64,000 nt of DNA from Promethearchaeota archaeon (GTDB taxonomy: Archaea; Asgardarchaeota; Lokiarchaeia; Sigyniarchaeales; SOKP01). The stretch lies in NCBI GenBank assembly GCA_048939995.1, contig JBHLOY010000001.1, forward strand, positions 256,001 through 320,000. The letters run 5' to 3'. The notes beneath the pieces are model-generated. The model made no database searches. It saw only the letters and a program-made list of their open reading frames with translations, and was not told the origin of the DNA. Positions 12,764 to 34,615 of this stretch are shown here, in pieces. The first letter of the stretch is position 1, and every line of letters starts with the position of its first letter. Position numbers and translations under genes: made by a program.

Positions 12764-14185
12764 ATGATAAAATTTAGTGATAAACAATTAAAGATACCTA
12801 AATTGATGAGACCAGTATATCTGGCTACAGTAGGAATGTCTAAATTTGATAGAGCTTTTCCAGAGACTCGCACTGAAGAGCTTTGCGTTGATGCATTTAC
12901 TGCTGCTGCTGATTTTGTGAATATGACCCCTTCTGAATTAAAAAGTTATATTCATACATGTTATTATGGTCATTTTGCGGATCATTTTGGTGATCAACTC
13001 CTTGGAGAGGCTGTTATTCATGATAGATTAGGTTTAGATCCATTGGGAAATATTGGTGTAAAAACAGGTGGCGCAACTGGAGGATCAGCCATGTGGGAAG
13101 CTGTTAAGACAGTAGCCTCAGGGTATAGTGATTGTGCTCTAGCATTGGGGTGGGAGAGGATGGATGAAGTTCCTACGGATGAGGGAAATCATTTAATTTC
13201 ATGTGCTGCAGACAAGGATTGGGAAACTCCATTAGGTCATATTTATACTGGCTATTATGCTGTAATGGCTCAGAGGTATTGGAAAATATTTGGCAAAGAA
13301 GAACCTTCTTTTAGAGATACAATGGCAGAAATTGCAGTAAAAAATCGTGGATATGCTAGAATGAATCCTCATGCTCAAGGTCCTATGAAGATCACAATAG
13401 AAGATGTTAAAAATTCGCCCATAGTAGCTTATCCTCTAAGAGCTTTAGATTGCTGTTTAATGAGTGTAGGATCTGCATGTGGAATCGTTTGTGATGAGAA
13501 GACAGCTTATGAGATTACAGACAAACCGCTCAGAATTTATATTGCTGCCGGAAGTCACACACTAAGAGTGGCTGATCGAAGAAATATGAATATCCCATTA
13601 TTACCTAATGAAGAACCAGGTCAATATGACAATTTGGGTAAGCAATTTCCAGGAGGAGATCGATATCCTGGTTTCACGGGTTTTTTGGCTGCTCGTATGG
13701 CAGCCTATTATGCTTATAGAATGGCTGGTGTGATGGATCCAACAGATGATTTAGATATTGTTGAATTGCATGATGCATTTACAATCAGTGATATTCAAAC
13801 CTATGAAGATATAGGAATACGACCATATGGTCATGGGCGCGAATATATTGAATCTGGTGATGCTTATGTTATTAATCCAAAAACCAATAAGCCTGGAAAA
13901 TTACCTAGCAATCCATGTGGGGGCCTAATAGGTTGCATGCACGCTGTAGGAGCTACTGGATTAATGCAAATAGCTGAAATCGGTTATCATATATGGAATA
14001 GATGGGATGAAATTCATGAACCAAAAGAAAAATGGAAAGCATTTGATCGTGAAAAGCCAGAAGATTGGACGAGTTTACAAGTCAAAGGTGCTAAGCGTGG
14101 ATTAGCTATAAGTCATGCAGGTGTAGGCTCTCATGTAACTTGTACTATTTTAATGGATCCAAATCATTTAATTAAGGAGGATTGA
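12764..14185 (+). CDS. Thiolase-fold protein (SCP-x/archaeal type) lacking the nucleophilic Cys
   Basis: VELHDAF, NPCGGL..MHAVGATG; the CASG site reads TGGATGG. Confidence 0.85.
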   Translation: MIKFSDKQLKIPKLMRPVYLATVGMSKFDRAFPETRTEELCVDAFTAAADFVNMTPSELKSYIHTCYYGHFADHFGDQLLGEAVIHDRLGLDPLGNIGVKTGGATGGSAMWEAVKTVASGYSDCALALGWERMDEVPTDEGNHLISCAADKDWETPLGHIYTGYYAVMAQRYWKIFGKEEPSFRDTMAEIAVKNRGYARMNPHAQGPMKITIEDVKNSPIVAYPLRALDCCLMSVGSACGIVCDEKTAYEITDKPLRIYIAAGSHTLRVADRRNMNIPLLPNEEPGQYDNLGKQFPGGDRYPGFTGFLAARMAAYYAYRMAGVMDPTDDLDIVELHDAFTISDIQTYEDIGIRPYGHGREYIESGDAYVINPKTNKPGKLPSNPCGGLIGCMHAVGATGLMQIAEIGYHIWNRWDEIHEPKEKWKAFDREKPEDWTSLQVKGAKRGLAISHAGVGSHVTCTILMDPNHLIKED

Positions 14186-14189
14186 AAAG

Positions 14190-14792
14190 ATGCCTAAACT
14201 AGAAGATGAAAAGGGATTTGTTAAAATTGTGAAAGGAAAGTATAAACCTCGAGGGAAATTTCATAATATCGAAAAAAATCAACCAATTTATAATGAAGAT
14301 ACAGGAATGTTAGCAGGAGTTACAAATCCAAGAGATATGACCTATATTCATTCATATGGTGGAGAAAGTATCTTTTTTGAATCATTGGGGAAAGGAAAAT
14401 TAATGGCAACCCGTTGTGATAATGATAAATGCGAGTCAAAGGGATCCATCTTTGAACCTTTTAGAATCTACTGTCCTGATTGCTTGAGAAAAGCTACTGT
14501 TGTTGACATTACCCAAAAAGCTCAAGATTCTGCTAAGATTCATTCATTTATTATCACCCATCGTTCAGGAGCTTTTAATACACTTCCTAAACCAATAAAG
14601 TTCATAAACGTTGAGTTTGATGAAGAAGTAGTAACAATTCTTATGAGTGTATTAGTTGTAGGAGAGCCTGAAATTGGAGAAAGAGTCGTACCAATTTTCC
14701 GAACCAAAAGCCCAACTTATACAATTATGGATTTAATGTTTGTTATTAAAGGTACATCTGAGGCAGAGTTACCAGAAGGATTTACTTTCTAG
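14190..14792 (+). CDS. DUF35 Zn-ribbon/OB-fold acyl-CoA-binding protein
   Basis: FFESL..GKLMATRC...C...YCPDC, OB-fold ending IGERVVPIF; 4 nt after the thiolase. Confidence 0.85.
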   Translation: MPKLEDEKGFVKIVKGKYKPRGKFHNIEKNQPIYNEDTGMLAGVTNPRDMTYIHSYGGESIFFESLGKGKLMATRCDNDKCESKGSIFEPFRIYCPDCLRKATVVDITQKAQDSAKIHSFIITHRSGAFNTLPKPIKFINVEFDEEVVTILMSVLVVGEPEIGERVVPIFRTKSPTYTIMDLMFVIKGTSEAELPEGFTF

Positions 14793-16185: not shown

Positions 16186-17157
16186 ATGTCTAATGTATTG
16201 ACATCATGGCGTGATAAGTGTATAATTACTTGTGCTCTTACGGGCTCAGCTACAATACCATCTCAAACACCTTATTTACCAATAACTCCTGAAGAGATCG
16301 CTGAAGAAGCTAAAAAAGCATGTGATGCAGGTGCAGCTGTTGTTCATGTTCATGTTAGAGACCCTAAAACTGCTATGCCATCTTCGGATTTGGGGATTTG
16401 GAGAGAGACTCTCGAGAAAATTAAATCTAAAACTAATGTGATAGTTTGTTGCACAACTGGAGGAGGTGCTGGAATGACGGCAGAAGAAAGAATTTCTGTA
16501 GTGCCAGAATTTAAACCAGAGATGTGTTCATTTAATTGTGAATCCATGAATTTTTCAATTTTTCCATTATTGGAAAGAATTCAAGAGTGGAAGTATCCTT
16601 GGGAAAAAGCACTTGTAACTATGAGTAAAGGATTAGTTTTTCAGAATAGTTTTGTAGATTTAGAGAAATTTGTTAAAACCATGTATGAAAATAATGTTAA
16701 ACCTGAACTTGAAATTTACAGCACCAGTGGTCTCTGGAATGCGGGGGCTATGGTTAGATTTGGATGGTTAAAACTTCCTCTTCATATGCAATTTGTATTA
16801 GGAGTATTAGGTGGAACAGGAAACACTCCCTGGGAATTGATGCATTTACATACTGAAGCTTTTAGACTTCTTGGAGAGAGAAATTTCACTTGGTCCGTGA
16901 TTGGGCTAGGATATCCGAGAGAGTTTCATTTAGGAGCAATTTCAGCAACAATGGGTGGCCATATAAGAGTTGGTTTAGAAGATAATATCTCTTTAGGATA
17001 TGATGTTGAAAAGAAGGAACGAATATTGGCGAAAAGTAATGCTGAATTAGTTGAAAAAATGGTAAGAATAGTTAATGACTTGGGGCGTGAAGTAGCTACT
17101 CCTGATGAAGCAAGAAAAATGCTCAAACTTAAAGGTCTTGATAAAGTTAACTATTAA
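16186..17157 (+). CDS. Beta-keto acid cleavage enzyme (BKACE/DUF849; 3-keto-5-aminohexanoate cleavage family)
   Basis: IITCALTG, P.TPEEIA, VHVHVRD Zn motif, KPELE, GGHIRVGLEDN, ATPDEAR. Confidence 0.92.
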   Translation: MSNVLTSWRDKCIITCALTGSATIPSQTPYLPITPEEIAEEAKKACDAGAAVVHVHVRDPKTAMPSSDLGIWRETLEKIKSKTNVIVCCTTGGGAGMTAEERISVVPEFKPEMCSFNCESMNFSIFPLLERIQEWKYPWEKALVTMSKGLVFQNSFVDLEKFVKTMYENNVKPELEIYSTSGLWNAGAMVRFGWLKLPLHMQFVLGVLGGTGNTPWELMHLHTEAFRLLGERNFTWSVIGLGYPREFHLGAISATMGGHIRVGLEDNISLGYDVEKKERILAKSNAELVEKMVRIVNDLGREVATPDEARKMLKLKGLDKVNY

Positions 17158-17337
17158 AATTAGGAGATTTTTTCTTTTTTTTATTTTAAACAAAACTGTT
17201 AAAGATCTTGCCAGAAAGTTAAATCATCACAGATTTATCATATTCTATTTATCTAATTAAAAATTATTAATATAAGATTCTATCAATAATATATTAATTT
17301 CAATTTAAATGACTAAAAAGTAATTAGGTAAGTCAAG

Positions 17338-18480
17338 ATGGATAAAGTTGCGATAGTAGGAGTTGCTCAAACTAAATATGAAGCAGAGAAGATAGATCAA
17401 ACATATATGGAGCTTGTCTTTGAAGTTGTAAAGAAATTATATAATGATCTAGGAATAATTAATGATGATGTTGGGTCTGTTATAACAAGTTCAAACGATT
17501 TTAATGATGGTAGAACTATTGCTAATATGGGAATTCAAGATGCTGTAGGATCAATTGGAAAATCAGAATCTAGAGTCTCTGGTGATGGTGCTTTTGCGTA
17601 TGTTTATGCTGCAATGAGAATACTATCTAGAGAATATGACACTGTAATGGTTGTTTCTCATTGTAAGTGTTCTGAAGTGAATCAGTATCTTGTAAATAAT
17701 ACTATTTTTGATCCATATTATCAAAGACATTTAGGTTTAGATCAAATCTCTTCTGCTGGCTTAATGGCAAATATGTATATGACAAAATATGGCATAACTA
17801 AAGAACAGGCAGCCAAAGTGGTAGTAAAGAACAGAAAAAATGCTCTAAATAATCCTTATGCTCACTTACAGAAAGAAGTATCCCGTGAGGAAGTCCTCAA
17901 TTCACCAATGATGGCTTATCCCTTAAAAAAATTAGAATTTCCACCTTTTTCAGATGGTGCAGTTGCAATGTTGTTAACTAATGAGAAAATAGCAAGAAAG
18001 TTCACAGATACTCCTGTATGGTTAAAAGGATATGGAAATTGTACTGATGCATATTATCTAGGACATCGTAATATGACAGACTTGATTGGACTTGAATTAG
18101 CTGCAAAAGAAGCATATAAAATGGCAGATATTAAAAATCCTGTGGAAGAATTAGATGTTGCTGAAGTTTATGATGCTTTTTCGGTTCATGAATTGATGAG
18201 TTATGAAGCTTTGGGTTTCTGTAACAAGGGAAAGGGTGGTGAATTTATGGATAGTGGTCAATCTTATATGAATGGAAATATACCAGTAAATCCCTCAGGA
18301 GGTGTGCTTTCAAGTAATCCAACAATGGCAAATGGTCTGATTCGCGTAGCAGAAATTGCTCTCCAATTAATGGGTAAAGCTGATAAGAGACAGATTAATG
18401 GTGCTAAAATAGGTTTAGCAAATGGCATGAATGGAATATGTTCCCAAGGAAATTGCGTTTTAATTTTTGGAGGTGAATAA
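17338..18480 (+). CDS. Thiolase-fold protein, Ltp4-like (no catalytic Cys)
   Basis: SSNDFNDGR, SRVSGDGAFA, EVYDAF, VNPSGG..SSNP.MANGL. Confidence 0.8.
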   Translation: MDKVAIVGVAQTKYEAEKIDQTYMELVFEVVKKLYNDLGIINDDVGSVITSSNDFNDGRTIANMGIQDAVGSIGKSESRVSGDGAFAYVYAAMRILSREYDTVMVVSHCKCSEVNQYLVNNTIFDPYYQRHLGLDQISSAGLMANMYMTKYGITKEQAAKVVVKNRKNALNNPYAHLQKEVSREEVLNSPMMAYPLKKLEFPPFSDGAVAMLLTNEKIARKFTDTPVWLKGYGNCTDAYYLGHRNMTDLIGLELAAKEAYKMADIKNPVEELDVAEVYDAFSVHELMSYEALGFCNKGKGGEFMDSGQSYMNGNIPVNPSGGVLSSNPTMANGLIRVAEIALQLMGKADKRQINGAKIGLANGMNGICSQGNCVLIFGGE

Positions 18481-18484
18481 GAGA

Positions 18485-19651
18485 ATGGCTAAAAATGATG
18501 TGGCTATTGTTGGGATAGGGCAAACAAAATTTAGAAGTAAACGGAGAGATGTAAATATTCCTGAAATGATCTATGAAGCCACAAAAATGGCTTTGGATGA
18601 TGCTCAACTTGAACCTAAAGATATTGACGCCATAATTATTGGCAATATGGACCATTTTGAAGGAGTTAATTTCTCAGAAATGTGGTGTGGAATTGATGCA
18701 GCACCAGGTTATTTAAAGCCAGTTGTTAAAGTTGCAACAGGTGGTACAACTGGAAGTTCATTAGCAATTTGCGGATATTATAATGTTGCTTCAGGAATTT
18801 ATGATAAAGTACTGGTTATTGGGTGGGAAAAATTAAATGAAGGAGGAGCAACAACAGGGATCATTACCGCTTTTGATCCCGTTTGGGAAAGACCATCATT
18901 AGCAGGAGCTTTAGGTCCTTTGGCTCTTATGGCAAGTACCTACGCAGCAAAATACGGAATAACACCAGAACAAGCTGCAAAAGTAACAGTTAAAAATAGA
19001 AGTAATGCAGCAAACAATCCATTTGCTCATCTACAAATGCCTAATATCACTGTAGATTATGTAATGAGCTCTCAATTGATATCTCCTCCTTTAAGACTGC
19101 ATGATTGCTGCCCTCAGAGTGAAGGTGCTTGCGCAATTATTTATGCTAATAAGGAAGAAACGAAGAAGATAAGAGACAACCCCGCGTGGGTTCATTCAGT
19201 TGCAACAGCTCATTATTATACTTATGGAACCGATACATTAATGTACGATTTGCCTTCAGCAACCATAGCTGCAAAAGTGGCTTATAAAAAGGCTGGGATT
19301 AAAGATCCCGTTAAAGATTTAGACGTTGCTGAAATTTATGAACCTACTTCTTGGAGCGAGTTAGCATGGACAGAAGGTCTACTTTTCTGTGAAAAGGGAG
19401 AGGGTGGGAAAATACTAGATGAAGGAATTACTCAAATGAGCGGTGAATTACCTGTTAATCCATCAGGTGGCGTTTTAAGTACTAATCCCATTGGGGCCAC
19501 AGCTTTAGTACGAGTAGCAGAAGCAGCAACCCAAGTAATGGGTAGAGGTGAAAAGAGACAAGTCCCAGAAGTAGAGAAAGCTCTTTCTATGGGATTTGGA
19601 GGAAGTTTATGGACTGAATTATTAATATTAGGTAAAGAACCAATGAGGTGA
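18485..19651 (+). CDS. Thiolase-fold protein, Ltp3-like (no catalytic Cys)
   Basis: DHFEGV, KVATGGTTGSS, EIYEPTSW, VNPSGGVLSTNPIGATA; ATG 18485 follows a GGAGGTGA SD. Confidence 0.8.
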   Translation: MAKNDVAIVGIGQTKFRSKRRDVNIPEMIYEATKMALDDAQLEPKDIDAIIIGNMDHFEGVNFSEMWCGIDAAPGYLKPVVKVATGGTTGSSLAICGYYNVASGIYDKVLVIGWEKLNEGGATTGIITAFDPVWERPSLAGALGPLALMASTYAAKYGITPEQAAKVTVKNRSNAANNPFAHLQMPNITVDYVMSSQLISPPLRLHDCCPQSEGACAIIYANKEETKKIRDNPAWVHSVATAHYYTYGTDTLMYDLPSATIAAKVAYKKAGIKDPVKDLDVAEIYEPTSWSELAWTEGLLFCEKGEGGKILDEGITQMSGELPVNPSGGVLSTNPIGATALVRVAEAATQVMGRGEKRQVPEVEKALSMGFGGSLWTELLILGKEPMR

Positions 19652-19656
19652 ACTTA

Positions 19657-20145
19657 ATGAGTAAAAAGAAAAACCAAGAAAAAGTATTTGAGATAAAATG
19701 GAAAACAGATCTACCATATCGATATTCAATTGGAAAACTCGCTGTCAAGTTTTTTGAAGAACTAAAAATGAATAAGAAAATTTTAGGTAGTAAGTGTTCA
19801 AAATGCGGTAAGGTTCACTTTCCTCCAAGAGCCGTATGCGCAGATTGTTTAGTTGAGATGACTATTAAAGATATGGTGGAATTGTCCACAAGAGGTACTT
19901 TAGCAGGGTTTACAGTTGTAAATTATCCTTTTATTGACCCCAATACAGGTGGTATGCGCCCATTTCCTTATGGTTATGCTATATTCAAGTTAGATGGGGC
20001 AGATACATATACTATGCATTTCTTGGATGAAACCGATCATACCAAAATGCGTGTTGGCCAGCGAGTTGAGGCTGTATTCAAAGAGGAAAGAGAAGGAAAT
20101 ATCGGTGATATTCCATACTTTAGAATTATAAAGGAGGAAAAATAA
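19657..20145 (+). CDS. DUF35 Zn-ribbon/OB-fold protein
   Basis: KCSKCG..FPPRAVCADC, LDGADT, VGQRVEAVF; GAGGTGA SD before ATG 19657. Confidence 0.9.
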   Translation: MSKKKNQEKVFEIKWKTDLPYRYSIGKLAVKFFEELKMNKKILGSKCSKCGKVHFPPRAVCADCLVEMTIKDMVELSTRGTLAGFTVVNYPFIDPNTGGMRPFPYGYAIFKLDGADTYTMHFLDETDHTKMRVGQRVEAVFKEEREGNIGDIPYFRIIKEEK

Positions 20146-20158
20146 CGAGGTGAATCTA

Positions 20159-20608
20159 ATGGGAGAAGAGATTGAAAAGAAAATATTTAAAGGAAGGATT
20201 AAAGTTCCTTACAAACATACTGCTGGGGCTTATGTAGAGAAGTTTATTACACATATTGGAAAGGAACATAAAATTATGGGAGTTAAGTGCCCAAAATGCA
20301 AAAAAGTGTTTGTTCCTCCAAAAATGATATGTTTTGAATGCTTTGAAAAAATGGAAGAATGGATTGAAGTAGAAAATATTGGCACAGTGACAGGTTTCAC
20401 TGTTATTACGCATTCTACACCTGTGTTGCCATTGGAATCCCCCTTTGCTTATGCCAGAATTAGATTAAACGGCGCAGATACCGATTTTGTACATTTGATA
20501 AATGAAAGTGATCCTAATAAGTTACGCGTTGGTATGAAAGTTGAAGCTGTTTTTAAAGAAAAACCAAGAAAAAGAATCTTAGATATTGAGTATTTTAAAC
20601 CAATATAA
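20159..20608 (+). CDS. DUF35 Zn-ribbon/OB-fold protein
   Basis: KCPKC..VPP..CFEC, LNGADT, VGMKVEAVF; GAGGTGA SD before ATG 20159. Confidence 0.9.
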   Translation: MGEEIEKKIFKGRIKVPYKHTAGAYVEKFITHIGKEHKIMGVKCPKCKKVFVPPKMICFECFEKMEEWIEVENIGTVTGFTVITHSTPVLPLESPFAYARIRLNGADTDFVHLINESDPNKLRVGMKVEAVFKEKPRKRILDIEYFKPI

Positions 20609-20678
20609 TAAAAGATTAATTTCTTTTTTTTTTTATCTTATTAAATTAACATCAATAAAAATTTAGATTTGATCAAAT

Positions 20679-21503
20679 ATGAGTGAAAATGTTATCTTAA
20701 TTGAAGAGGATGAGGATAAAACTATTACAACCATAAAAATGAATCGGATTGCGAAAAAGAATGCAATCAATTATGATTTAATGGTAGGTCTTCAAAAAGC
20801 TATAGATCAAGTGGAACGCTCTGATACAAGGGTTGTCATCATCACTGGTGGAGATGAATTATTTAGCTCTGGAATTGATTTAAACTTCCTAACTGGGCAA
20901 GAAAAAGATCCTGAGGGCGTAATACCTGATTTACGAGTTCCAAGAAATTTCAGATACTTTGCTAATACATGGATTCATTCAATATTCACAAAAATTGAAA
21001 AAATGGAAAAACCAGTAATCGCTAAAATCAACGGTTATTGCTTTGGAATGGCATTTGAGCTTGCTTTGGCGTGTGACTTTCGATTTTGCACCGAATCGGC
21101 TCAATTTCACATGCTTGAAAGTAAGATCGGTATGAACCCAGATGTGGGGGGTACAATAAGGTTAACAAGGCTTGTAGGTATTCAAAATGCTAAAGATATA
21201 ATTTTAACTGGACGTATGTTTGATGGAAATGAAGCTTATAGATTAGGAGTCGTAAATCGAGTAACTAAAACACACCAAGAATTAGATTCTATAATTAAAA
21301 TGTATACAGATGAGCTTATAGACAGCGCACCTCTAGCTGTAGGGCTTACTAAAAAATTAATTGATGATTGTTATGGCAAGGATACTGCTTTTGGACTAGA
21401 GCTTGAAACTTTGGTAAGTTCACAATTGCTTCAAACAAAAGATGCTGTATCTGGAGCTTTAGCAAGATTACAGAAAACAAAACCAAAATGGAAATGGAAA
21501 TAA
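20679..21503 (+). CDS. Enoyl-CoA hydratase/isomerase (crotonase)
   Basis: FSSGIDL, KPVIAKING..G.AFELALACDFR, ES.IG..P. Confidence 0.92.
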   Translation: MSENVILIEEDEDKTITTIKMNRIAKKNAINYDLMVGLQKAIDQVERSDTRVVIITGGDELFSSGIDLNFLTGQEKDPEGVIPDLRVPRNFRYFANTWIHSIFTKIEKMEKPVIAKINGYCFGMAFELALACDFRFCTESAQFHMLESKIGMNPDVGGTIRLTRLVGIQNAKDIILTGRMFDGNEAYRLGVVNRVTKTHQELDSIIKMYTDELIDSAPLAVGLTKKLIDDCYGKDTAFGLELETLVSSQLLQTKDAVSGALARLQKTKPKWKWK

Positions 21504-23276: not shown

Positions 23277-24473
23277 TTAGGTTAAAGTTAAATCAAGATG
23301 GATATCTGTTAAAGGATAAGAGACACAGGGATGAATAAATCCAAAATCCTTGTCAACTTCACGGATAGTGACCCAAGGAGGTACAAAAATTTTTCCAGAG
23401 ATCAATTTTGTTCTGCATAATGCACACTCTCCTGAACGACAGCCATTTGCAATTCCAATCCCCGGTAATTTTAGACGTTCTATACTATTTAGAAGTGGTT
23501 CTATACAAGAAGCTTTAAATTCTATTTTTTCAGCAGCACTACCTTTCCTAAGATCAATTTCTATTTTAATCTCCTGTGAAGCATCAACTTCTTTTGGCCA
23601 TCCCATAATTTGGGCTATATCTTCTGGAATTCCAAATGCTTCATAATAGATTTTATGTTCTGGCACCCCTATAGTACTCATTTCAGCTTTAATAAATTCA
23701 TACATAGGAAGATTTCCTACAACATAGAAATACTTGTTCTTTATTGAACCTATCTCATTTAAAATCTTATCTTTTGTAATGAAGCCGCATTCTCCACTCC
23801 AATCAGGCTCTGGTTCAGATAATATGAATTTTATCCTTATATTTGTCCTTCTTTTTTGAATATCTTCTAATTCATCTCTAAAGAGAATATCTTTTTCAGT
23901 TAAACAGCCATAAATCAGTGAAATATTCAATGGTAAAGCTTTCTCAGAGATGTCTCTTAGCATCGAAATAAATGGAGTTATCCCGCATCCTCCAGCGATA
24001 AATACAAGATGATCTCCATGAAAGAGAGGGTTATAAAATAAGTTTCCTAAAGGTTCAGTTGCTTCATAAATATCTCCGATCTTTGCAGATTCGAATAAGT
24101 AAGGACTAACAAAGCCACCTTGCTTCTTTCTAATGCCTAACTCATAATAAGCAAGTTGATTAGGTGATGATACTAATGAATAAGGACGTGATGTTCTGAC
24201 TCCATCAATTTCCAAAGTAACACCTATGTATTGGCCCGCCCGAAATGGTGCTAAAGCCTTTTTTGGTTTCGCTGATATAAATCGAAATAATTTTGTATCA
24301 TGAGAAAGGTCTTCAATATCAGTTAGTTTTAGTAATTGATTTCCAGGATGTATTCTTTCACATAAATTTTCTAAACCATCAAAATACCAAGGAATTGGTT
24401 GAATTTCTTCACGCAACTTTTTCAATTTTTCAGCTTTTTGATATTTCTTTATATCTTCCATCATGTTTACCAT
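23277..24473 (-). CDS. FNR-type FAD/NAD(P)H oxidoreductase with C-terminal [2Fe-2S] ferredoxin (PaaK/Hcr-like)
   Basis: F.AGQY, RPYSLVS, GG.VS, IAGGCGITPF, CRSGECALC...HPC. Confidence 0.9.
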   Translation of the reverse strand: MVNMMEDIKKYQKAEKLKKLREEIQPIPWYFDGLENLCERIHPGNQLLKLTDIEDLSHDTKLFRFISAKPKKALAPFRAGQYIGVTLEIDGVRTSRPYSLVSSPNQLAYYELGIRKKQGGFVSPYLFESAKIGDIYEATEPLGNLFYNPLFHGDHLVFIAGGCGITPFISMLRDISEKALPLNISLIYGCLTEKDILFRDELEDIQKRRTNIRIKFILSEPEPDWSGECGFITKDKILNEIGSIKNKYFYVVGNLPMYEFIKAEMSTIGVPEHKIYYEAFGIPEDIAQIMGWPKEVDASQEIKIEIDLRKGSAAEKIEFKASCIEPLLNSIERLKLPGIGIANGCRSGECALCRTKLISGKIFVPPWVTIREVDKDFGFIHPCVSYPLTDIHLDLTLT

Positions 24474-26020
24474 CTCCCTTCGATTTTATCTTTTAAATAA
24501 ATCCCTGAAGCAATCCTACCTCCAAGTATGGTGGAAGAAAAACCACCTCCAAAATTTGTCCATGCACCTACTTGATAAAGTCCAGGAATTGCCCCTCTAC
24601 TAGTTAATCTAAATAATGGCCCGTTAGTGACATCTTGAGTTGTACCATAAATAGCACCTTCAAGATTCTTCGAATATCGGTAGTATGTTAGAGGACTTGC
24701 TGCTACAGCAACTTCTATATAGTCTCGGATTTCTGGACATATTGTTTCTTCCACTAATGAGATCATACCATCCGCGATTTCATCCTTAAGCTGAAAGTAT
24801 TGATCTGGGGGGACACTTTGCCATAGTTTACCCATTTGTAAAGTAGTTAATACAAGTTGTGTTGTCCCAGGAGGTGATATATCCTCATAAATATGATTAT
24901 AGCAGGCCGCTACGATATATTTCGGTACCTCTAATTTGTGAAACATTTCATATGCTTCATTCATATTGTAACTATTATTGATGAAGGTCTCGTGAGCAGT
25001 TAAGCCCAAGTCTTTATAAGAAGCGTTCAGTCCAATATAAACTGAGAATCCTGAGGGTCCAATCTCAGGGGTATAAATTTTTTTCTTGTATTCTTCAGGA
25101 ACAGTCTCAGGTGGTAACATTTTCATTGTAGTACATATTGGGTTAACATTAGAAATCAGTGCCTTACACTTGTAAATGTCTCCATTAATCAATTCCACAC
25201 CGCAAACTCTTCCATTTTCTACTAATACCTTATTTACTAAAGCATTATATCTTATTTCTCCGCTAAACTTTTCAAATGCTTCGACCATTGCGTTTACTAA
25301 TGAATGAGATCTTCCCATAGGAAATGCTGCGCCCCATTTTAAATAAAAGATTAACATGGCAATAAAGGCATATGCATTTAATCTATCTGGTGGTAATCCA
25401 ACGTATCCCCAAAGTTGTGAAATTAGAGCAATCAACTTCTTGTCAGTAAAGAATTTTGAGTATAATTCAGATAAGGTAATACCAGAGACACGTGGAAGCC
25501 AAGGATGATCTTTAAGAACTTCTTGAGGCTTGAATTTCCCTCTTTTTGAAGCAACATATTCAATTCCTCTTAATACCGCTTTACACATCTCCATGAATTC
25601 TTCTATACCTTTTTTTTCGGAAGGAAAAAGCTCAATTAATTTTGCAGTGTATTCTTCTACACCCAATGGCATTGTAATGTCAAATCCATCGAGAAATACA
25701 CTTCTATAAAATTCTGGCACTTGTTTAAATTGTAATCTATCCGGAATAATTTCTAATCTCTCTAAAAAGCGATATAAACTGCCTTTATTATCTTTTGTGC
25801 CTATATCACTAAGTTCATGAAGTGCACCTTCAAATTCGAATCTTCCTCGTACGAAAGAAGTAGCAAAACCTCCTGGAACATTATGTTTTTCGAGTAATAA
25901 AACTTTTTCTCCTCTTAATACCAATTGACATGCTGCACCAAGTCCTCCAAGTCCAGCTCCAACAACTATAACTGGATATGTAGAAATAACTCTATTCTCA
26001 TCATAAGTACTATTTATCAT
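24467..26020 (-). CDS. CrtI/retinol-saturase-like FAD-dependent oxidoreductase
   Basis: VVGAGLGGL, EKHNVPGG...F.RG.FEFE, SPLTY.RY...GAIYG, GLYQVG...GGG. Confidence 0.85.
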   Translation of the reverse strand: MINSTYDENRVISTYPVIVVGAGLGGLGAACQLVLRGEKVLLLEKHNVPGGFATSFVRGRFEFEGALHELSDIGTKDNKGSLYRFLERLEIIPDRLQFKQVPEFYRSVFLDGFDITMPLGVEEYTAKLIELFPSEKKGIEEFMEMCKAVLRGIEYVASKRGKFKPQEVLKDHPWLPRVSGITLSELYSKFFTDKKLIALISQLWGYVGLPPDRLNAYAFIAMLIFYLKWGAAFPMGRSHSLVNAMVEAFEKFSGEIRYNALVNKVLVENGRVCGVELINGDIYKCKALISNVNPICTTMKMLPPETVPEEYKKKIYTPEIGPSGFSVYIGLNASYKDLGLTAHETFINNSYNMNEAYEMFHKLEVPKYIVAACYNHIYEDISPPGTTQLVLTTLQMGKLWQSVPPDQYFQLKDEIADGMISLVEETICPEIRDYIEVAVAASPLTYYRYSKNLEGAIYGTTQDVTNGPLFRLTSRGAIPGLYQVGAWTNFGGGFSSTILGGRIASGIYLKDKIEGRW

Positions 26021-26094: not shown

Positions 26095-26910
26095 CTACCT
26101 ACCAATAAAATTGGGAGCTCTTTTTTCCTTTAGTGCTTGCATTGATTCATTAAAGTCTTTCGACGTGAAGCTTTTTCTTAGAGCTTTATTCTCTATATCC
26201 AGGGTCTTTGAAAGGATTTCTCTGAAATAACTATGCATTGTTTTTTTCATTAATTTTATCGATAAGTAGGGCCCTTTAGGAGGAATTAATCGTAAAGCTT
26301 GTTCTCTAGCGTAAGGAATCAATTTATCAGTTGGTAATACTTTATTTATTAAACCTAGCTCGTATGCTTGCTGAGCTGTGATTTTATCTCCGAAATATAC
26401 GATTTCTTTAGCTTTTTGAAAACCTAAATAAAATGGTAGTATAAAAGAGTTGGCAAATTCTGGAATTATCCCTCTTTTAACAAAAAAGAATCCGAGCCAT
26501 GCATCCTCAGACATATAAATTAGATCAGCACCAGCAAGTGGCATAGTAATGCCCCCTCCAATTGCCATTCCATTAATGGCAACAATAACGGGCTTATTGA
26601 AGTCCCAAAGTTTCATACATAATGTTTTCTGTGCAATATCCATAATATTAATTTCTGGATATTTCTTCATTTCTTCAAACATTTCAAGCTTAAAAAAACC
26701 ACCAGAAGTAAAAGCTTTCCCTTTAGGATCTCCAGTAATTATCAAGACTTTACTACTTTTATCTCCTTCCATATCTTCTAAAATAGTGTATAGTTCCAGA
26801 AATGTAATGTAAGTAACAGCATTTCTTCTTTCAGGTTTAGAAATGGTTGCAGTACATATTCCATTATCTTCTTTTTTATAAATTATGTCTTGAAAGTCAT
26901 CAATATTCAT
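26095..26910 (-). CDS. Enoyl-CoA hydratase/isomerase (crotonase)
   Basis: KAFTSGG, KPVIVAINGMAIGGGIT, F.KRGIIPE. Confidence 0.9.
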   Translation of the reverse strand: MNIDDFQDIIYKKEDNGICTATISKPERRNAVTYITFLELYTILEDMEGDKSSKVLIITGDPKGKAFTSGGFFKLEMFEEMKKYPEINIMDIAQKTLCMKLWDFNKPVIVAINGMAIGGGITMPLAGADLIYMSEDAWLGFFFVKRGIIPEFANSFILPFYLGFQKAKEIVYFGDKITAQQAYELGLINKVLPTDKLIPYAREQALRLIPPKGPYLSIKLMKKTMHSYFREILSKTLDIENKALRKSFTSKDFNESMQALKEKRAPNFIGR

Positions 26911-32481: not shown

Positions 32482-32853
32482 TTATTTACTTTTTAATACA
32501 ATTGCTATTGCTCTTGTTAGACGAATCACTTCCATAACCTTACCTTTTTCAACAGTAATTTGTTCTCGGGAAATAGCATGAGTAAAATCTCCTTTTCCTT
32601 CACAAATTCTCGCTATTGCCGCAGAATCTCCAGACATTATGACTTCTGCATCGGGTTTAATACCTTTAGATAATTTGATTTTCCGATTTATGATCTCTAA
32701 AAAGAAAGGATCTTCATTATCAAGATTGAATTGAAATGACATTTCCCAGCTAATATCTTTTCCTGCAATATTAGTAACAAAAACATCTTGTGCTTTTGGA
32801 TTTTTATTCAAATTATCAATTATCTTATTTAAATAATCTATTGCTCTTTCCAT
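32482..32853 (-). CDS. Stand-alone SCP2-like domain protein
   Basis: FQF.L, DAEVIM.......I..GK.D...A.....I.V..G pattern of SCP2. Confidence 0.75.
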   Translation of the reverse strand: MERAIDYLNKIIDNLNKNPKAQDVFVTNIAGKDISWEMSFQFNLDNEDPFFLEIINRKIKLSKGIKPDAEVIMSGDSAAIARICEGKGDFTHAISREQITVEKGKVMEVIRLTRAIAIVLKSK

Positions 32854-32855
32854 AA

Positions 32856-33350
32856 TTAATCTCCTCCTTCATATTCCGGTTTTGATGTCCATTTATCATA
32901 TTCATCTTCAGGTACAAAGAAAAAATCTGTCATTTTTCCTTCTCTTTCTTTACTAAAAACCGCTCTGACTCTTTTCCCCTTTCTTATTTTTGATGGAACT
33001 AGATTTTCAGAAAATATGCCTTGAAGTAGAGCTGTTTCTGCTCCATCTAGCTTTATAAATCCTATACCATATGGTATTGCTTTTATAAACGCTGAAGTAG
33101 TATACCATACTATCGTGCTGACTTCTATGGTTCCAGTTTGTTTTAGTTCCACCCAATCTGCGGGAGAATAGCAATCTGAACAATTGATCCTCGGAGGCAT
33201 CCATGTCTTACCACAATTATTACATTTTGTGCCTAATAATTTCTTGTTATTCATTAGTTCAATAAAGAATTTGGATTGTCCTCCCATTGTATATTTATAA
33301 TCAATTTTTATTTTATCTCTGATTTGATGATCTTGAAATTCTTTACTCAT
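32856..33350 (-). CDS. DUF35 Zn-ribbon/OB-fold protein
   Basis: GTKCNNCG..MPPRINCSDC, LDGAET, GKRVRAVF. Confidence 0.9.
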   Translation of the reverse strand: MSKEFQDHQIRDKIKIDYKYTMGGQSKFFIELMNNKKLLGTKCNNCGKTWMPPRINCSDCYSPADWVELKQTGTIEVSTIVWYTTSAFIKAIPYGIGFIKLDGAETALLQGIFSENLVPSKIRKGKRVRAVFSKEREGKMTDFFFVPEDEYDKWTSKPEYEGGD

Positions 33351-34615
33351 TTCTTCAACCCCTCCTCATTTGCCATTACAATTACTGCGGCATATGCCGC
33401 TCCAGGACCCCCTATTGAATGGGCAATTGATCTGCCTTTTTCAATTGCCACTTGATGTTTACCAGCTTCTCCTCTTAATTGCAAAGCAGCTTCCCCAGTA
33501 CTCATAATACCAGTGGCACCAACCGCATGTCCACATCCAATTAAACCACCAGAAGGGCAACATGGGAGTTCTCCCTCTAACCAGGGACCTTCGCCTGACT
33601 TTTCAAAGGTTTTCTCAATCCAAGGGCCACCCTCTCCAAATGGAACAAATCCAAGCTCTTCATAGGAAATTACCTCTTGCCCCGAGAAAGCATCATGAAG
33701 TTCAGCGCAATCGATTTGCTTCTTTATGTTTTTATAATCTAAACCCCCCATTTTATATGCAGCCTTTGCAGCATAGATATTTGAGTACAATCTGCCCATA
33801 TCTTCTCGATTGCCAATAAAACAATCAGTATTTGCTGCAGCTACTCCAGTAACCCAAATTGGTTTCTCAACCTTAAGTTCTTTTACTTTTTGTTCATTTG
33901 CCAAAATTAATGCTGCTGAAGCCTCTGAATAAAGACAGCAATCCAATAATTTAAAAGGATAACATATGATTCTTGAATAAAGTACATCTTCCACCGTTAT
34001 TTCCATAGGAGATTGAGCTTTTGGATTTAACATAGCGTTACTATGATTTTTAACACTGACGTATGCCATTTGTTCTTCAGTAGGGTTCCCAAATTCTTCA
34101 TAATGTGCATTTACCATGGAAACATATGAACTTGCTGCCATCATACCCATTGGATATTCATAGGTCATATCAGCTGAATAAGCAATAGCATTTAAAACTT
34201 CAGGAGTAGTAGTACCCGTCTGTTCATCATAACAATCATTACATTTCTCAAGCCCTATACATAAACATAGATCACTCAACCCTGATGCTACTTCTGCAAA
34301 TGCCATTCTCACAGTATATCCTCCAGTTGCTCCACCAGTTGCTACTCTGGTGCCGGGTTTATTATTCAATCCTAAATAACTGTTAGTAAAGATATCTGGC
34401 ATAAATTGACGCTCAAAGAGTTCATTATAAATACCATAGACAGAAGATTGAAGGTCATTGTGAGTTATTTCTGCTCCATTCTTATTTGCATCTTCTAAAG
34501 CCAATTTTGTAGCATCATAAGCAAGCTCAAAGTAAGTTTTATCTAAATATCTTGCTCTAAAAGGAGTTATTCCTATACCTATAATTGCTACTTTTTGCAA
34601 AATTTTTTCACTCAA
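33347..34615 (-). CDS. Thiolase-fold protein lacking the nucleophilic Cys
   Basis: RVATGGATGG at the CASG site, AELHDAF, GCGHAVGATG. Confidence 0.85.
   Translation of the reverse strand: MSEKILQKVAIIGIGITPFRARYLDKTYFELAYDATKLALEDANKNGAEITHNDLQSSVYGIYNELFERQFMPDIFTNSYLGLNNKPGTRVATGGATGGYTVRMAFAEVASGLSDLCLCIGLEKCNDCYDEQTGTTTPEVLNAIAYSADMTYEYPMGMMAASSYVSMVNAHYEEFGNPTEEQMAYVSVKNHSNAMLNPKAQSPMEITVEDVLYSRIICYPFKLLDCCLYSEASAALILANEQKVKELKVEKPIWVTGVAAANTDCFIGNREDMGRLYSNIYAAKAAYKMGGLDYKNIKKQIDCAELHDAFSGQEVISYEELGFVPFGEGGPWIEKTFEKSGEGPWLEGELPCCPSGGLIGCGHAVGATGIMSTGEAALQLRGEAGKHQVAIEKGRSIAHSIGGPGAAYAAVIVMANEEGLKK

Follow-up and report, generated by a model that had tools for sequence, protein, structure and literature searches.

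The 64,000-nucleotide stretch of Asgard archaeal DNA analysed here (hereafter the window; G000:C11:256001-320000, from a genome, G000, of 3.75 Mb with about 31% G+C) carries at positions 17338-20608 four open reading frames (ORFs) on the plus strand, T1-T2-Da-Db, which encode two thiolase-fold proteins followed by two DUF35 proteins. On balance, this module more likely than not specifies a heteromeric, Cys-independent retro-aldolase, which would be fed by a crotonase encoded downstream. It is a new archaeal member of the Ltp3/Ltp4 kind, which is known genetically and is biochemically blank. Coordinates given below without a genome or locus label are counted within the window.

Active-site residues of the thiolase-fold subunits

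A true thiolase possesses a nucleophilic Cys, an acid/base Cys in the HDCF motif and two catalytic His, one in HDCF and one in GHP. Aligned with solved thiolases and 187 relatives, T1 displays Gly, Tyr278, Ala and Asn, and T2 Gly, Tyr285, Pro287 and Asn334, at the nucleophile site, the His and the acid/base Cys of HDCF and the His of GHP, respectively. The initial annotation, which was made from the letters of the sequence, had read a loss of the thiolase Cys and a replacement of the HDAF and GHP His by Tyr and Asn in both proteins, which the alignment confirms, and all of the motifs it listed were found: SSNDFNDGR, SRVSGDGAFA and SSNPTMANG in T1, and in T2 HFEGV..SE (reading HFEGVNFSE), ATGGTTGSS, IYEPTSW.E (reading IYEPTSWSE) and STNPIGATA. 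Since the canonical catalytic residues are replaced in both T1 and T2, the public labels 'acetyl-CoA C-acetyltransferase' and 'thiolase family protein' are, as judged from this alignment, wrong as functional names.

When about 48 sequences of the T2 class were set against about 110 of the T1 class, the former active site proved near-invariant in the T2 class, with Gly87 and Tyr285 in 100%, Asn334 and Gly372 in 97% and His182 in 85% of the sequences; the NPIGA loop is near-invariant as well, and Arg20 and Lys78 are conserved. The T1 class varies at the Tyr site (Ser 32%, His 12%, Asp 10%), where the T1 orthologue of genome G071 has Ser, and shows Asn at the Asn site in only 48%, keeping residues of its own instead (Asp54 99%, Gly58 97%). 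Because the active-site positions are conserved in the one class and vary in the other, T2 is probably the catalytic subunit and T1 probably a structural, non-catalytic partner, a division of labour comparable in logic to the ketosynthase-chain length factor (KS-CLF) pair of type II polyketide synthases. From the residues it is concluded that T2 and Ltp3 would both carry the active site and share a reaction type, with T1 and Ltp4 as their structural partners. Of the heteromeric aldolase suggested in the initial annotation, the part concerning T2 stands, as this subunit looks catalytic, whereas the assignment of both subunits as aldolase was too strong in view of the variable Tyr site of the T1 class. 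Cys209 of T2 was considered as a relocated nucleophile and rejected, for the aldolase Ltp2 and one third of the aligned true thiolases have this Cys as well.

Relationship to Ltp3 and Ltp4

Tsukamurella tyrosinosolvens (NZ_LR134446.1, L033) served as the Ltp reference, its locus comprising echA19 (428 bits, cut-off 400), an acyl-CoA ligase, a double-DUF35 protein of 309 amino acids (aa), Ltp4 (593 bits to NF005924, cut-off 419) and Ltp3 (734 bits to NF006180, cut-off 514). A Nocardia record with these genes plus Ltp2, and with a double-DUF35 protein of 340 aa, was used as second reference. The bona fide orthologues of Tsukamurella and Nocardia carry the motifs SSDYLAGR, VEMDAAWA, (G/A)NPMF, MFEGV, TAGSVGGS, IYVPFSW and SNPIGA, and when checked on them the Ltp3/Ltp4 motifs quoted in the initial annotation were right, save one letter in two motifs.

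Searches with phmmer gave T1 104 and T2 65 bits against Ltp4, and T2 264 and T1 157 bits against Ltp3. A 3-residue deletion in the nucleophile loop (T1: VSGDGAFA---Y) is common to T1, the first genes of the Asgard pairs and Ltp4; all 110 T1-class rows, Ltp4 included, have this deletion together with an S-x-D-x3-G-R motif, and the deletion class formed a single clade in a FastTree analysis of 187 rows. In the more careful tree (IQ-TREE, 65 rows, LG+C20), T1 and T2 were split from the Cys/His thiolases and from Ltp2 at 100/100, T1 fell into one clade with Ltp4 (100/100) and T2 into one with Ltp3 (100/99). T2 is also identical to Ltp3 at 17 of 17 class-signature sites (R20, F58, K78, G87, H182, C209, P210, S212, Y285, P287, N325, N334, I336, G337, Q350, Q359 and G372). 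As T1 clusters with Ltp4 and T2 with Ltp3, the duplication that gave rise to the two subunits predates the divergence of the archaeal and actinobacterial modules.

A divergent subgroup of modules (L047, L049 and L052, in genomes G007, G048 and G061), with the motifs EIDDKFSYK and EVYDPFDYK, was observed in which the T1-like and T2-like genes cluster together and not with the main T1 and T2 clades, a pattern due either to a separate duplication or to long-branch attraction.

The best NCBIfam model for T2 is NF006180/PRK08313, the Ltp3 family, with 372.6 bits and a lead of more than 100 bits, which is below the cut-off of 514. T1 reaches 191.7 bits to NF005924/PRK07937, the Ltp4 family, likewise below the cut-off (419), and four other thiolase-like models score higher. 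Identity amounts to 40% between T2 and Ltp3 and to 30% between T1 and Ltp4. Within both clades the window proteins group with other Asgard sequences, next to sequences from Bathyarchaeia, Syntrophales, Elusimicrobiota and a deltaproteobacterial metagenome-assembled genome, and neither T1 nor T2 is sister to the actinobacterial Ltp4 or Ltp3. The closest named homologues mark the host as an Asgard archaeon, in agreement with the initial annotation. Because the scores lie below the cut-offs and the proteins branch apart from the actinobacterial pair, T1 and T2 are, by sequence, relatives of Ltp4 and Ltp3 at class level and not their orthologues. The earlier equation of the first protein with Ltp4 and of the second with Ltp3 is therefore upheld at class level, by tree, deletion and signature, and not supported as orthology by scores and branching; the phylogeny against Ltp3 and Ltp4 that had been proposed as a check leaves T1 and T2 in the Ltp4 and Ltp3 clades.

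DUF35 partners and subunit pairing

T1 and T2 were always found as tandem pairs. Seventeen Asgard T1-T2 pairs were recovered, two of them at a contig end with incomplete flanks; among the 15 fully flanked pairs, 11 are accompanied by two DUF35 genes, one by a DUF35 fusion and three, all of one family, by a single DUF35. Single thiolase-like genes are accompanied by one DUF35. Distances of T1 and T2 co-vary over 19 modules with a Mantel r of 0.94 (0 of 5000 permutations), a figure inflated by kinship, and the correlation is r = 0.71 among five paralogous modules of one genome. A heterodimer has two different docking faces and would hence fit two DUF35 genes; we infer that a T1-T2 heterodimer and two different DUF35 proteins make up one complex.

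Da and Db each consist of a CxxC...CxxC zinc ribbon and an OB fold (former DUF35), with all four Cys present in both. In genome G040, which belongs to the same family as the window genome, they are fused in frame to a protein of 319 aa (G040:C46; L051 5255-6214, minus strand) adjoining the orthologous T2 and T1. The fusion scores 282 bits to Da and 256 bits to Db, has Db as its C-terminal half and a Lys/Glu-rich linker of about 15 residues, and reproduces the architecture of Rv3521, the double-DUF35 protein of the Rv3521-Ltp4 (Rv3522)-Ltp3 (Rv3523) system. The earlier statement that the Rv3521-type protein is split here into two genes was borne out, Da and Db being separate in the window and fused in the orthologous locus. 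When Da and Db were compared with the two halves (N- and C-terminal) of the double DUF35 of actinobacteria, the scores were ambiguous. Ancient Da and Db classes were considered and rejected, since the DUF35 tree pairs the actinobacterial halves as sisters and likewise the two DUF35s of one Asgard module; because of these sister relations the two-DUF35 state probably arose more than once.

Proposed reaction

In the proven thiolase-fold retro-aldolases TcLtp2 (YDHF) and CtSal (YDCY), catalysis relies on the Tyr at the His site of HDCF as the base, and the backbone of the Gly that stands in for the nucleophile binds the hydroxyl of the substrate (PMC12329534). As the T2 class keeps both the Gly and the Tyr common to Ltp2 and Sal, T2 is read as an aldolase. 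Ltp3 and Ltp4 are each needed for degradation of C24-branched sterol side chains and were described as a heteromeric aldol-lyase (PMC6678751, PMC6273163), the genetic work being that of Wilbrink 2012, which both papers cite.

We infer reaction type and direction as follows. The enzyme would be a T1-T2 thiolase-fold heterodimer flanked by two DUF35 'staple' proteins. Without a nucleophilic Cys, T2 could form no acyl-enzyme; it would reversibly cut the C2-C3 bond of a 3-hydroxyacyl-CoA in a retro-aldol reaction, with Tyr285 as the base acting on the 3-OH and the backbone of Gly87 holding the hydroxyl, and the thioester enolate would depart as acetyl- or propionyl-CoA. The 3-hydroxyacyl-CoA would be supplied from an enoyl-CoA by the adjoining crotonase, which possesses both hydratase Glu.

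Several points weigh against this proposal. The second catalytic residue of the known aldolases, and with it an evident acid to protonate the enolate, is missing from T2, which has Asn334 in the column of Ltp2 Tyr344 and Pro287 where Sal has Cys304 and Ltp2 a His. A search for longer proteins gave no T1-T2 or T-DUF35 fusions, which is weak negative evidence, and returned two PhlA-DUF35-PhlC-like fusions of a different branch. The crotonase may be transcribed separately. In the literature searched, the evidence on Ltp3/Ltp4 was genetic only, no enzymology was found for any T1/T2-class protein, Ltp3/Ltp4 included, and no paper dealt with archaeal or anaerobe relatives.

An AF2 model of T2 (pLDDT 90.6, pTM 0.93) adopts the SCP2-thiolase fold, with TM-scores of 0.92 to 6ESQ, 0.86 to Ltp2 (6OK1) and 0.83 to Sal (9MYR); the fold search does not separate aldolases from thiolases, as all SCP2-type chains lie at TM 0.83-0.92.

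Gene organisation

The coordinates of the module and its surroundings are compiled in Table 1. Intergenic gaps of 4, 5 and 13 nt separate T1/T2, T2/Da and Da/Db, and each GAGGTGA Shine-Dalgarno (SD) site sits 7-8 nt upstream of an ATG (18485, 19657 and 20159), which places the actual start codons of these three genes slightly downstream of the longest-ORF starts; for T2, a TTG at 18467 is an alternative to the ATG. ORFs, gaps and SD sites all agree with the initial annotation, which had described four tightly spaced genes, the three downstream ones with GAGGTGA. The oligo-T runs at both ends are, to go by their sequence, likely terminators, and T1-T2-Da-Db is read as one SD-coupled four-gene operon between them. 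The upstream gene for a beta-keto acid cleavage enzyme (BKACE) and the downstream crotonase gene may belong to separate transcripts, in the case of the crotonase because an oligo-T run precedes it.

Table 1. Features of the T1-T2-Da-Db module and the surrounding part of the window.
Feature	Position	Strand	Description
Thiolase-like gene and 200-aa protein	12764-14792		473-aa thiolase-like protein and weakly DUF35-like protein
BKACE	16186-17157	+	Beta-keto acid cleavage enzyme; Pfam BKACE, 323 bits
T-rich stretch	17168-17182	+	3' of the BKACE gene, upstream of T1
T1	17338-18480	+	Ltp4-class thiolase-fold protein, 380 aa; Pfam Thiolase_N + Thiolase_C_1
GAGGTGA of T2	18470-18476	+	Shine-Dalgarno site
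T2	18485-19651	+	Ltp3-class thiolase-fold protein, 388 aa from ATG 18485; Pfam Thiolase_N + Thiolase_C_1
GAGGTGA of Da	19645-19651	+	Shine-Dalgarno site
Da	19657-20145	+	DUF35 protein, 162 aa; Pfam zf-ChsH2 + OB_ChsH2_C
GAGGTGA of Db	20147-20153	+	Shine-Dalgarno site
Db	20159-20608	+	Second DUF35 protein, 149 aa; Pfam zf-ChsH2 + OB_ChsH2_C
11-T run	20624-20634	+	3' of the Db stop; likely archaeal terminator
Crotonase (ECH1)	20679-21503	+	Pfam ECH_1, 157 bits; hydratase Glu127 and Glu147 both present
CrtI-like flavoprotein and FNR-[2Fe-2S] reductase	23277-26020	-	Overlapping genes
Second crotonase	26095-26910	-	First catalytic Glu gone, P-E Glu kept
Thiolase-like gene, DUF35, SCP2	32482-34615	-	Operon; thiolase-like protein of 422 aa

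Neighbourhood of the module

The crotonase following Db is likely the supplier of the 3-hydroxyacyl-CoA, to judge from its residues. The earlier claim that it makes the substrate of the aldolase is favoured by the presence of both hydratase Glu and tempered by the oligo-T run in between, which perhaps puts the gene on a transcript of its own. Its orthologue adjoins the module in G071, and a crotonase adjoins the module in G040 and the paralogous module L037.

BKACE enzymes convert a beta-keto acid and acetyl-CoA into an acyl-CoA and acetoacetate. The window BKACE is closest to the model for 3,5-dioxohexanoate:acetyl-CoA transferase (351 bits, cut-off 430). Of the 14 T1-T2 modules examined, spread over six Asgard genomes, 7 have a BKACE gene at a distance of at most 6 kb (G047, G071, G040 and G012 among the BKACE holders); with only 2-6 BKACE genes per genome, chance proximity was estimated at about 1-2% per module, for modules that as kin are not independent.

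Around the module there are furthermore genes for an acyl-CoA dehydrogenase (ACAD), a Cys-less thiolase with a DUF35-like partner and an F420-type LLM oxidoreductase and, on the opposite strand, an Fe-type alcohol dehydrogenase (Fe-ADH), SCP2, an FNR-[2Fe-2S] reductase, a CrtI-like flavoprotein, a second crotonase and an acyl-CoA ligase. Taken together, ligase, dehydrogenase, hydratase, putative aldolase and alcohol dehydrogenase match the pattern of the known hydratase/aldolase side-chain pathways. Neither a 3-hydroxyacyl-CoA dehydrogenase nor a Cys-bearing thiolase is among the annotated genes of this island; canonical thiolases are present elsewhere in the G000 genome. The orthologous loci of G071 and G040 keep a crotonase and the CrtI-like gene and have a more distant BKACE paralogue, and in addition the FNR gene is kept in G071 and the SCP2 and Fe-ADH genes in G040.

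According to the scheme published for Ltp3/Ltp4, cleavage yields a free carboxylate in need of re-esterification (PMC6678751), which on our reading of the scheme would be a beta-keto acid. Linkage to BKACE and a beta-keto acid product together suggest a sequence of hydratase, aldolase and BKACE. It is conceivable, albeit fairly unlikely, that the T1-T2-DUF35 complex, crotonase and BKACE together remove, without need for O2 or ATP, the beta-branches at which beta-oxidation stalls. The substrate, a CoA ester of the 3-alkylglutaconyl type, would be hydrated and then split by the retro-aldolase to acetyl-CoA and a free beta-keto acid, which BKACE and acetyl-CoA would turn into a shortened acyl-CoA and acetoacetate. 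If this is true, Asgard archaea and syntrophic anaerobes could consume isoprenoid or other branched lipids.

Some further neighbours are recorded in their own right. The second crotonase, which G071 and G040 also have next to their modules, has lost its first catalytic Glu (GGGIT for G-x-x-x-E); going by its sequence it is unlikely to be a simple hydratase and might belong to an isomerase, decarboxylase or lyase type. The overlapping CrtI-like and FNR genes are kept as a pair next to the module in G071, with the CrtI-like gene kept in G040, and no partner oxygenase was seen for them. Upstream, the thiolase-like protein of 473 aa carries large insertions and retains both His (HDAF, MHAVGATG), whereas its nucleophile site is Gly; together with the 200-aa protein whose gene follows, it is kept in G071, and it branches outside the T1/T2 clade. 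With the 422-aa thiolase-like protein on the minus strand, which has Gly at the Cys site and both His, the window comprises three kinds of thiolase-fold genes lacking the Cys. Genes of the nitronate-monooxygenase family (FabK-like) stand beside the Asgard modules L039 and L045 and beside echA19 in Tsukamurella L033.

Distribution and paralogous modules

Of the 10 genomes in the family to which the window belongs, 4, counting G000, have a T2 orthologue of at least 74% identity, as do 4 of the 5 in a second family, and orthologues are 74-97% identical across these two Asgard families. About 110 of the best 150 50%-identity clusters for T1 belong to the T1 class, which spans archaea and strictly anaerobic bacteria. 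One genus has five T1-T2 modules per genome, and G000 and its relatives have two to five paralogous modules in unrelated contexts. The second module of G000 (G000:C28:113200-116615; L020 8201-11616) reads DUF35, T1-class, T2-class, zinc-ribbon DUF35; two genes of the 2-hydroxyacyl-CoA dehydratase D-component family (HGD-D) were observed about 2.5 kb upstream of it and an alpha-amylase gene after it. Among the eight SCP2-type thiolase-like genes of G000, only one (C13:218663-219922, with its own DUF35) has Cys/His/His, the nucleophile being replaced by Gly or Pro in the remaining seven.

Alternative explanations

Since aldol reactions are reversible, the same complex might run as a condensing aldolase, joining acetyl-CoA to an aldehyde, a ketone or a beta-keto acid and thereby serving to extend chains, to introduce beta-branches or to make fatty acids, as has been proposed for ketothiolase/DUF35 pairs in archaea. 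An Fe-ADH able to supply the aldehyde, two crotonases and BKACE are nearby, and a preprint ties ketothiolase/DUF35 pairs, numerous in Asgard genomes, to fatty-acid synthesis (10.1101/2024.07.05.601840). The characterised fatty-acid synthesis complex, however, has a true ketothiolase, whereas T1 and T2 lack the Cys for Claisen chemistry; the acyl-CoA ligase and the ACAD at the locus are typical of degradation, and the sole genetic data for the class, those on Ltp3/Ltp4, are catabolic, which makes the condensing direction unlikely. Decarboxylation of a malonyl-type or 3-carboxyacyl-CoA, in the manner of those Cys-less thiolase/ketosynthase superfamily members that catalyse decarboxylation but no condensation, appears quite unlikely as well. 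The conserved Arg20 and Lys78 of the T2 class could bind a carboxylate, and an SCP2-thiolase-like protein of Trypanosoma with a YDCF motif was crystallised with malonyl-CoA (PDB 5AB7); yet the Cys of YDCF is absent from T2, no carboxylase or malonyl-CoA context was seen at the locus, and the association with a hydratase fits a hydroxyacyl substrate better. The Trypanosoma protein is presumably active as a decarboxylase.

The loss of every canonical thiolase residue, together with the known role of DUF35 proteins as docking modules, would also suit a non-catalytic acyl-CoA-binding scaffold, in which T1-T2-Da-Db holds or channels substrates for crotonase, BKACE and ACAD. Such a role is very unlikely in view of the strict conservation of the T2 class (Gly87, Tyr285, Asn334 and Gly372 at 97-100%) across wide phylogenetic distances, which is typical of an enzyme, and of the high identity of the orthologues in both Asgard families. 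That the module is the direct functional counterpart of Ltp3/Ltp4, cleaving carboxylated C24-branched sterol side chains in an archaeon, would agree with the same architecture, the T2 signature residues and the nearby SCP2 genes and LLM-type oxidoreductase, an LLM gene also standing beside the double-DUF35 gene of the Nocardia locus. It is nevertheless highly improbable: the pair is not sister to Ltp3/Ltp4 and stays below both family cut-offs, the crotonase is no EchA19 equivalog (166 bits, cut-off 400), and the paralogous modules stand in unrelated contexts. No steroid-ring or sterol genes are among the annotated neighbours in the window, the rest of the genome not having been searched for them. 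The resemblance to the sterol side-chain aldolase noted in the initial annotation is thus not borne out as a sterol function, given the low EchA19 score and the lack of steroid genes among the annotated neighbours in the window. The heteromeric retro-aldolase is retained as the preferred reading.

Significance

If Cys-less genes such as these are included, the counts of ketothiolase/DUF35 pairs used to argue for fatty-acid synthesis in Asgard archaea are inflated, which bears on the debate about the lipid divide. The T1/T2 class is very large and no biochemically characterised member was found, so that a single solved complex would define a new thiolase-fold C-C lyase chemistry. It would also settle the role of Ltp3/Ltp4 in sterol-degrading actinobacteria, mycobacteria included.

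Comparison with known systems

In structure, the T2 model comes closest to the archaeal complex of acetoacetyl-CoA thiolase, HMG-CoA synthase and DUF35 (6ESQ), in which DUF35 is the docking protein. Both this complex and the ketothiolase/DUF35 fatty-acid synthesis complex of Sulfolobus possess Cys/His/His thiolases, a single thiolase gene and a single DUF35, unlike T1/T2.

TcLtp2-ChsH2(DUF35) (6OK1) and CtSal-CtShy(DUF35) (9MYR) share with T2 the SCP2-type thiolase fold, the Gly at the nucleophile site and the Tyr at the first His site, and with the archaeal module a DUF35 partner and a hydratase supplying the substrate. In the solved structures of Ltp2 and Sal, a homodimer carries a pair of identical DUF35 domains at its flanks (PMC12329534). 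These aldolases employ one kind of DUF35 fused to a MaoC hydratase, whereas the module described here, presumed to form a heterodimer, has two free DUF35s and a crotonase-type hydratase; moreover, Ltp2 branches outside the T1+T2 clade, and Tyr344 of Ltp2 and Cys304 of Sal are absent from T2.

The Rv3521-Ltp4-Ltp3 system has in common with the archaeal module a Cys-less pair in the same order, Ltp4-class before Ltp3-class, two DUF35 domains per module and a crotonase and an acyl-CoA ligase close by. It differs in that the first His site is still occupied by His in Ltp4, as against Tyr in T1. The archaeal module, in turn, stands apart by its anaerobic archaeal host, by BKACE, Fe-ADH and CrtI-like neighbours with no sterol context seen, and by DUF35s encoded in two separate downstream genes, in contrast to the one fused gene upstream in the Rv3521 system.

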